A DNA stretch of 64,000 bases from Octopus vulgaris (taxonomy: Eukaryota), in assembly GCA_951406725.2 (NCBI GenBank), contig OX597816.1, positions 43,338,001-43,402,000 of the forward strand, in the 5' to 3' direction. How positions within the stretch are numbered: the first letter of the stretch is position 1; every line of letters begins with the position of its first letter. Below the pieces are notes generated by a model, which did not search any database, had not been told where the DNA came from, and was given only the letters and a program-made list of their open reading frames with translations. Of this stretch, positions 57,108 to 58,350 are shown in pieces. The translations under genes were made by a program, and so were the position numbers.

Positions 57108-58350
57108 GATAAAACGGTAAGATAACAAAAGAAAGAAAGAGACCTCAATATTATGTAAATAGAGGAAATTTATCTATACAATATGCTACATTACTCGGTA
57201 GTCAAGATAAAACTCTGAGTTTCAGATGCCGAAGTGGAAATCCACAACACCATCTCTTCGGTTATCTGGCTATTTGAAAACGTTATGAAAAAATACCGTT
57301 AAAAATGAAGGGAAATTACTCTGTTATAACTCTGCTTTGCCTGCGTACTTATACATCGCTCGCATTTTTCGTCATAAAAATTATATAAAAATACATAAAA
57401 ATATATAAAAATATATAAAAATATATAAAATCTTCTTGGGACATAACACAGAAAGCATGTTCTATCCGTTTTCTTTAGGGGACCAAAAACGTAACAGAAA
57501 TTTAGTCACATGTGGGCATGATCTGAAAAGCTCTGTCCTTGTATTTAGACATGTGGTAGGGTCTAAGCTGCTTTTCCAGATAAGCCATCTCTCCATGTCG
57601 CATAAACCGCACCTTCCGCTGCCGTTAGTATAGGGCTTACATCTGGCCAAAATCTTCCATTGTATGTTATAATCGACACCTTTATCTCTTAAAGACCAAA
57701 TATGATTGGATAATTGTGTCGCTTTTCTTTTGTTCCAGTGCCTAAAGCTCAAAGTGTGGTTATTGAACCTGGCCTTGAAATTACCCTCTGTCGGAACAAA
57801 AGAAAAGCGACACAATTATCCAATCATATTTGGTCTTTAAGAGATAAAGGTGTCGATTATAACATACAATGGAAGATTTTGGCCAGATGTAAGCCCTATA
57901 CTAACGGCAGCGGAAGGTGCGGTTTATGCGACATGGAGAGATGGCTTATCTGGAAAAGCAGCTTAGACCCTACCACATGTCTAAATACAAGGACAGAGCT
58001 TTTCAGATCATGCCCACATGTGACTAAATTTCTGTTACGTTTTTGGTCCCCTAAAGAAAACGGATAGAACATGCTTTCTGTGTTATGTCCCAAGAAGATT
58101 TTATATATTTTTATATATTTTTATATATTTTTATGTATTTTTATATAATTTTTATGACGAAAAATGCGAGCGATGTATAAGTACGCAGGCAAAGCAGAGT
58201 TATAACAGAGTAATTTCCCTTCATTTTTAACGGTATTTTTTCATAACGTTTTCAATTAGCCAGATAACCGAAGAGATGGTGTTGTGGATTTCCACTTCGG
58301 CATCTGAAACTCAGAGTTTTATCTTGACTACCGAGTAATGTAGCATATTG
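57108..58350. mobile_element. Young head-to-head pair of 5'-truncated Penelope-like 3' ends, flanked by (TA)n
   Basis: Minus copy 57792->57108 and plus copy 57793->58350; both encode the GIY-YIG C-terminal part (ATQLSNHIWSL..IQWKIL..CGLCDMER..LNTRTELFRSCPH; FKARFNNH only in the longer minus copy); arms nearly identical. Confidence 0.92.
58263..58323 (+). ncRNA. Variant type I hammerhead (CCGAAGA core); mirror copy at 57206-57266 on minus
   Basis: GATAA-CCGAAGA-GATG..GTGGA-TT-TCCAC..CATC-T-GAAA-CTC-A-GAG-TT-TTATC. Confidence 0.7.

Follow-up and report, generated by a model that had tools for sequence, protein, structure and literature searches.

A near-perfect palindrome of a Hydra-clade Penelope-like element in Octopus vulgaris and its probable origin by two priming events

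At positions 57108–58350 of a 64,000-nucleotide stretch of Octopus vulgaris DNA (the whole stretch is hereafter called the window), two copies of the same retroelement 3' end lie head to head. The locus raises the questions of which element was inserted and how one site came to carry the same 3' region twice, in opposite orientations and with different ends.

Structure and age of the palindrome

The two arms, 57179–57736 and 57793–58350, are 558 nt each and differ at a single position (57273 versus 58256). They form the longest inverted repeat of the window, far above chance, and a chance origin of the repeat was rejected. A MITE or TIR DNA transposon was also rejected, given that the two ends are unlike and that the arms code for a retroelement endonuclease. 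The left copy is the longer one on both sides, by 56 nt at the 5' end and by 71 nt (57178 to 57108) at the 3' end; the spacer was assigned to the left copy because the minus-strand ORF continues through it. The features of the locus, a truncated Penelope-like element (PLE), are as follows.

57108–57792, minus strand: left copy, a 5'-truncated Hydra-clade PLE 3' end of 685 nt, bearing the tail
57462–57791, minus strand: ORF remnant encoding 109 aa and a stop, corresponding to the C-terminal half of the Hydra GIY-YIG endonuclease
57737–57792, minus strand: 56-nt spacer by which the left copy is longer at its 5' end, continuing the left ORF in frame
57793–58350, plus strand: right copy, 558 nt, ending at the short 3' site 32 nt past the predicted ribozyme cut
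57795–58067, plus strand: right ORF remnant of 90 aa plus stop, identical to the left remnant
58262–58324, plus strand: type I hammerhead-like motif, predicted cut after 58318 (own descriptor)
57205–57267, minus strand: hammerhead-like motif of the left arm, same as the right (own descriptor)
57108–57178, minus strand: one-sided tail, 71 nt; judged by homology to be the 5' UTR of the following unit in a parental tandem
57140–57165, minus strand: bulged stem-loop conserved in Hydra tails, here with a compensatory C-G outer pair
57088–57101, unstranded: left (TA)7 remnant of the target, where a SINE-like repeat (about 56640–57087) ends
58351–58462, unstranded: right (TA)n target remnant; no target-site duplication callable
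57374–57430, unstranded: tandem array of 5.6 copies of a 10-nt unit within the 3' UTR; mirror copy at 58099–58155

Clade identity, the two arms, their two different 3' ends and the (TA)n target are shown by the data. The initial annotation had described a palindrome fused at 57792/57793 with 5' truncation points 56 nt apart, different 3' ends, (TA)n at both ends and stop-free ORF remnants, and each of these points held, with the 3' difference measured at 71 nt and with (TA)7 on the left lying past 6 A/T bases. Its 117-aa peptide had to be shortened: the element-coded part is 109 aa (57791 to 57465), the first 8 residues being antisense read-through of the other arm, and on the right copy it is 90 aa (57795–58064). 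The residue preceding the first peptide residue is Leu in 133 of 151 relatives, and the microhomology at the junction would therefore amount to 0–1 nt. Neither further copies of this PLE family (blastn and tblastn) nor a second Hydra remnant (Hydra protein profiles) were found in the window.

The single mismatch in 558 positions corresponds to 0.18% (95% range 0.005–1.0%), which bears out the earlier description of the insertion as very young. If the rate of 0.0036 per site per Myr that PMC13282606 quotes for octopus applies, this supports an age of roughly 0.25 Myr (95% range 0.006–1.4), an estimate that would shift with RT error, gene conversion or polishing. Young PLE copies are reported to be common in octopus, with 30 Penelope families and 329 recent insertions in O. 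vulgaris. Arm identity would instead date a master copy if an element that was already palindromic had been retrotransposed or duplicated as a unit. PLEs are reported to mobilise in trans sequences flanked by their terminal repeats, and no other copy is at hand to exclude such a master. However, both ends match family-type ends in outward orientation, and the far end of a single cDNA would have had to stop exactly at the antisense terminus, so that we regard this route as distinctly improbable.

With 99.8% identity, the arms could also be an artefact, either a fold-back chimera from assembly or amplification or two older arms made alike by polishing; assemblies are known to struggle with complex PLE insertions. 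Nevertheless, both arms stop at biologically defined PLE ends, their flanks differ, older hairpins of the same build (84–93% identity) occur in the window, and the related locus L003 shows the same build with 758 identical bases in a separate dataset, making an artefact very improbable. Palindrome arms can undergo gene conversion, and the nested arrangement of the arms would suit a solo copy that was later inverted and duplicated by a DNA-level template switch, or arms kept alike by conversion; yet the short arm ends at a typical PLE site and runs directly into (TA)n rather than into duplicated flank, and such a DNA-level origin is scarcely credible.

Endonuclease remnant and hammerhead-like motifs

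The Hydra clade is defined by a C-terminal GIY-YIG endonuclease with CxxC and CxH motifs around E and N, and its members also insert into (TA)n and carry hammerheads (PMC8557442). The remnant carries the endonuclease signature (R8, CxxC at 61–64, E67, N83 and CxH at 92–94 of the peptide), and it lies in (TA)n, the insertion target of the clade. It also shows the order of the clade, with the C-terminal GIY-YIG endonuclease followed by the stop and then the 3' UTR; the GIY-YIG core, the CxCX5C linker, RWK, DKT and the PLE RT all lie upstream of the truncation point.

A phmmer search with the peptide returned 3922 relatives at E ≤ 0.001, with a best identity of 54%, and a profile search returned 1047 longer relatives (241 aa or more), the few named ones coming from marine invertebrates or their symbiont assemblies. 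From 268 proteins analysed, 38 of 620–800 aa were taken as a near-full-length set. YRDD and DK[TS] were each present in 37 of these and ADKG in none; both C-terminal Cys motifs (CxxC..E and N-x8-CxH) were present in all 38, the CxC linker in 36 and the RW motif in 27; linker, YIG, DK[TS] and YRDD were each found in 36–38 of the 38. The focal peptide aligned to positions 601–701 of the 703-position near-full-length profile (E 5e-36) and was 53% identical over 99 aa to the 694-aa protein P0261. Because the relatives show the clade-defining YRDD, DK[TS], linker and C-terminal Cys motifs and no ADKG, the element is almost certainly a 5'-truncated Hydra-clade PLE. The PLE and GIY-YIG identity proposed at the outset is thus borne out by the match of the peptide to the C-terminal endonuclease profile of its relatives, and narrowed to one clade.

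Penelope/Poseidon, Neptune, Nematis and Naiad were rejected on the C-terminal endonuclease with Hydra-type Cys motifs and on ADKG in 0 of 38 relatives; note that, for the CCHH criterion of those clades, the N-terminal part of CCHH is absent from the remnant. The Hydra-1_Obim family was rejected by eye, given ~45% protein identity (about 47 of 104 residues match, ungapped) and a different 3' UTR and hammerhead. Judged from these comparisons, the element is a separate, new family within the known Hydra clade. Protein searches did not recover a full-length parent of the family, which the initial annotation had proposed to be probably still active; the best identity was 52–54%. Pfam assigned no family to the 109-aa peptide and gave a weak GIY-YIG match alone for the relatives (P0001, E 0.035). 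A first word-index search for longer relatives yielded 0 of 18 candidates before an alignment query succeeded, a sequence-profile search of the PDB gave no match, and an AlphaFold model of the peptide (pLDDT 64) was uninformative, with no Foldseek match.

We searched for ribozymes with a relaxed descriptor of our own, which gave 6 matches in the window against 0.025 per shuffled window (40 shuffles). One type I hammerhead-like motif lies in each arm (58262–58324 on the plus strand, 57267–57205 on the minus strand), with a U4C core, an extra U before GAAA, a palindromic stem III and the three stems at the expected place. Its stem III is that listed for Penelope-3_HM, and U4C is a known, weaker natural hammerhead variant (PMC3088659). 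Rfam showed no hammerhead in the window among the 150 of 256 matches listed, nor in the arm alone; it barely detects even a canonical Hydra hammerhead in the related locus L010 (E 0.99). The predicted hammerhead fold lies 1.4 kcal/mol above the free fold. The motif is accordingly treated here as a candidate, hammerhead-like ribozyme. The two 3' ends of the element lie 32 and 103 nt past the predicted cut, and six published Hydra consensi, counted by eye, end 36, 46 and 47 and 88, 97 and 116 nt past theirs.

Two 3' ends, a conserved tail stem-loop and the origin of the arms

Since the arms of the focal locus are nested, with tail and spacer on the same copy, the locus by itself does not discriminate between models, and we turned to relatives. 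A scan of bacterial genome records gave 28 Hydra loci (L001–L028). Fifteen of them come from one assembly (CBDDTI prefix) among bacterial species-representative records; the loci are likely to be animal DNA carried in symbiont assemblies as host contamination. These relatives belong to other hosts and share at most about 53% protein identity with the focal element. The multi-copy families among the 28 loci have two fixed 3' ends, a short end 31–55 nt past the hammerhead cut and a tailed end about 65–75 nt further on, and the short site at which solo copies terminate is the one used by the short arms of palindromes.

At four places, an adjacent head-to-head pair could be resolved with both of its ends in view:

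L003
L008, 5085–5301
L008, 5774–6119
L010, 6407–7160

All four pairs, read by eye, carry one short and one tailed end. Left out of this count were loci whose end is cut off or unresolved (L002, L013, L014, L017, L022 and L008 6143–7582), a multi-family tangle (L011), a tail-to-tail pair (L009), hairpins without a tie to a Hydra ORF or tail (L010 4841, L016 3961 and L018), and the pair L008 1181/5026, an interrupted arrangement spanning 3.3 kb in which both ends are short. L003 and L008 5085–5301 are nested like the focal locus. In the other two pairs (L010 and L008 5774–6119), the tail is on the 5'-shorter copy, which fold-back of a longer cDNA cannot make and which needs two primings on RNA. 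Spacers of the related pairs range from about 7 to 771 nt, the long ones being 523–771 nt, and junction overlaps are 1–3 nt (L010 1, L017 2, L022 3, L008 about 3).

The tail itself contains a conserved structure. Tails of the relatives share GCTC...GAGC followed by RCT, with 21 strict matches, 16 of which have a hammerhead core within 130 nt upstream. The stem-loop consists of a 4-bp lower stem, a 2-nt 3' bulge starting with U and a variable upper stem, followed by NCT. In 20 matches picked on the flanking halves alone, 52 of 60 upper-stem positions were paired, whereas 2000 shuffles gave 15.8 on average and never more than 28. Across the alignment, 91% of cells are paired and 34 double changes occur; none of 500 shuffles scored as high, in a control that ignores relatedness, and the lower stem is invariant by construction because it was selected for in the match search. 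A covariance model built from 20 relatives, with the focal locus excluded, ranked 57130–57175 on the minus strand first of 8 window matches, at 16.6 bits and an E value of 0.05 under a rough calibration; all 8 pairs form in the focal stem-loop, with the outer G-C swapped to C-G.

The stem-loop lies just ahead of the ORF start in full-length relatives, and the tail is therefore the 5' UTR of the next tandem unit. Two tandem tail stem-loops precede the ORF in four full-length elements (L005 2593–2714, L006 2846–2961, L007 1325–1427 and L013 2844–2951), and both L005 and L013 show a compensatory A-U swap in the lower stem of one of the two copies. We found no description of the stem-loop in the literature searched, which was mostly without subscription papers, and the word 'hairpin' does not occur in the main text of PMC8557442 as available. 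Judging by its position, the stem-loop may flag the start point of copying, but it could equally well act as part of a promoter or in translation.

Taken as a whole, a mechanism with two primings probably explains the focal palindrome. One recent Hydra-clade PLE insertion would have entered a (TA)n tract, where an RT-endonuclease protein, probably a dimer, would nick both (TA)n strands and reverse transcription would be primed from both nicks on a tandem transcript. The first cDNA would start at the short site, 32 nt past the hammerhead, and the second 71 nt further on, past the conserved stem-loop; both would grow inward, stop early within the endonuclease coding region, be joined to each other at their 3' ends through at most slight microhomology, and then be filled in. 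The product would be a non-autonomous palindrome without promoter or RT. If transcribed, it would likely give a 558-bp RNA hairpin that feeds small-RNA or editing pathways, long hairpins being able to yield siRNAs as reported for Drosophila Penelope.

The two priming events named in the initial annotation thus gain support from the relatives and from in vitro work on another PLE, but are not provable at the focal locus alone. Specifically, the anole Poseidon PLE, from another clade than Hydra, cuts and extends both strands in vitro, and its RT starts at two sites bounding the tail (PMC11167929). Several points count against two primings. The focal junction has no microhomology to anneal two cDNAs, and the microsatellite-flanked hairpins of the window all have short spacers (2–82 nt), which independent truncation explains poorly (P 0.014 to 3e-6, depending on the length model, for five hairpins, three of them not established as PLEs). 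The relatives are from other hosts, the four informative pairs are few, the wider pair L008 1181/5026 has short ends on both sides, and the in vitro evidence is from a different clade. An obligatory coupling of the two 5' ends, considered for these short spacers, was dropped, as relatives have spacers of 198–771 nt.

With a single priming, the left-copy cDNA could have snapped back 56 nt from its end, or jumped onto itself, copied itself and been resolved 71 nt short of its start. Nested focal arms and the short spacers in the window, down to 2 nt in the hairpin 3101–3456, suit this account; self-priming has been proposed for PLE inverted junctions (PMC3846280), and resolution by the endonuclease has been proposed for the tail. 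However, the focal junction offers no base pairs for a snap-back (0 of 7 inner spacer positions pair between the arms), relatives have non-nested pairs and spacers of 500–770 nt, and solo copies end at the same short site. We therefore consider fold-back unlikely. Going beyond two primings as such, Hydra PLEs may use a programmed form of twin priming, in which the stem-loop would be the site of a protein dimer and RT would start on each side of it, leaving one short and one tailed end; the focal locus would then be a covarying case and a compact substrate of a recently mobile family. This proposal is tentative, and we hold it as a real possibility.

Other hairpins of the window and comparison with known systems

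The focal palindrome had been suggested to link the hairpins of the window to a GIY-YIG retroelement, and this stands in part. Hairpins at 46.3 kb and 63.2 kb do carry hammerheads, but belong to unrelated families without DNA similarity to the focal element. Those at 2.2, 3.1 and 54.1 kb have the short spacer, one-sided tail and microsatellite flanks, but share the architecture alone; the tail covariance model found no match in their tails, and their Hydra link is therefore unsupported. The focal locus shows what such hairpins can be, without assigning them, and accounts for one way in which the many long hairpins of genomes like this arise.

A second young hairpin (63065–64000), cut by the window end, has 371-nt arms of 98.9% identity, a 76-nt spacer and a canonical hammerhead per arm. 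Its left extension is an inverted copy of 63549–63662 from the junction, which suggests a non-autonomous, retrozyme-like unit of roughly 460 nt in tandem. A short non-coding family with a minimal hammerhead (46309–46709, 56399–56610, 59442–59696) comprises two back-to-back copies around (TA)n and two solos, and has a U4C core in two of four copies, as in the focal element. Older microsatellite-flanked hairpins lie at 2230–2975, 3101–3548, 53998–54505 and 60069–60209, with arms of 80–93% identity and spacers of 2–82 nt; the first three have one-sided tails of 46–92 nt. The build of the four is PLE-like, and no hammerhead, Hydra protein or tail motif was detected in them.

Just right of the focal insertion, 58553–59198 has terminal inverted repeats of ~165 nt and a 291-nt interior, which, translated by eye, contains what we take to be a remnant of a Tc1/mariner-like transposase motif; this 58.5-kb hairpin looks like a Tc1/mariner TIR element. 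An apparently intact LINE (37321–41611) has an ORF1 of 405 aa in which Cys/His motifs recur; its ORF2, of 1028 aa, reads by eye as AP endonuclease plus RT. An inverted-repeat family at 50228–50950 and 48917–49320 has arms of 97% identity with telomere-like (TTAGGG)n tracts inside them.

In L1 twin priming, synthesis likewise starts at both of the opposed nicks in the target, and the resulting 5' inversion is joined through short microhomology. There the inverted segment derives from another part of the RNA, further upstream, whereas at the focal locus the same 3' region would be copied from two fixed sites to give a palindrome.

Among PLEs the architecture is known: the truncated copy in inverted orientation, the tail at one end only and the (TA)n target have all been published. 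The Hydra clade (Craig et al. 2021, PMC8557442; e.g., Hydra-1_Obim of Octopus bimaculoides and Penelope-13_HM) shares with the focal locus the endonuclease motifs and the (TA)n target, its 3'-end hammerhead has a candidate counterpart there, and Penelope-13_HM is listed in that paper with an attached 5'-truncated inverted copy. The focal locus differs in that the 3' 685 nt alone are present and in that its U4C core with a long stem II appears in no Hydra row of the table published there. PLE insertions in general (Penelope of Drosophila virilis, Pen families of Adineta vaga) likewise have an inverted 5'-truncated copy at the 5' end and a one-sided tail; their tails are 30–40 nt, compared with 71 nt here, and at the focal locus both copies are heavily truncated and the junction lacks a palindrome. 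Cercyon remnants of Schistosoma carry paired opposite-strand hammerheads 100–700 bp apart (PMC4209133), comparable to the hammerhead-like pair of the focal locus.

A further likeness to the focal reading is in Poseidon of Anolis carolinensis studied in vitro (PMC11167929), where two RT starts bound the tail, both strands are cut and extended, the target is AT-rich and a stem-loop lies at the initiation site. Poseidon belongs to another clade, in which RT starts within the ORF, at sites in an AC-rich stem-loop; the hairpin of Hydra elements, by contrast, is in the 5' UTR just ahead of the ORF, and inverted pairs are not modelled in the parts of that paper available. The origin of PLE tandem and inverted structures and of their tails is stated to be an open question in the literature, with two explanations in print, namely self-priming (PMC3846280) and two internal RT start sites with both strands cut and extended (PMC11167929). 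Between these, the non-nested pairs speak for two primings rather than fold-back, and the stem-loop conserved in the tails provides a defined cis element.
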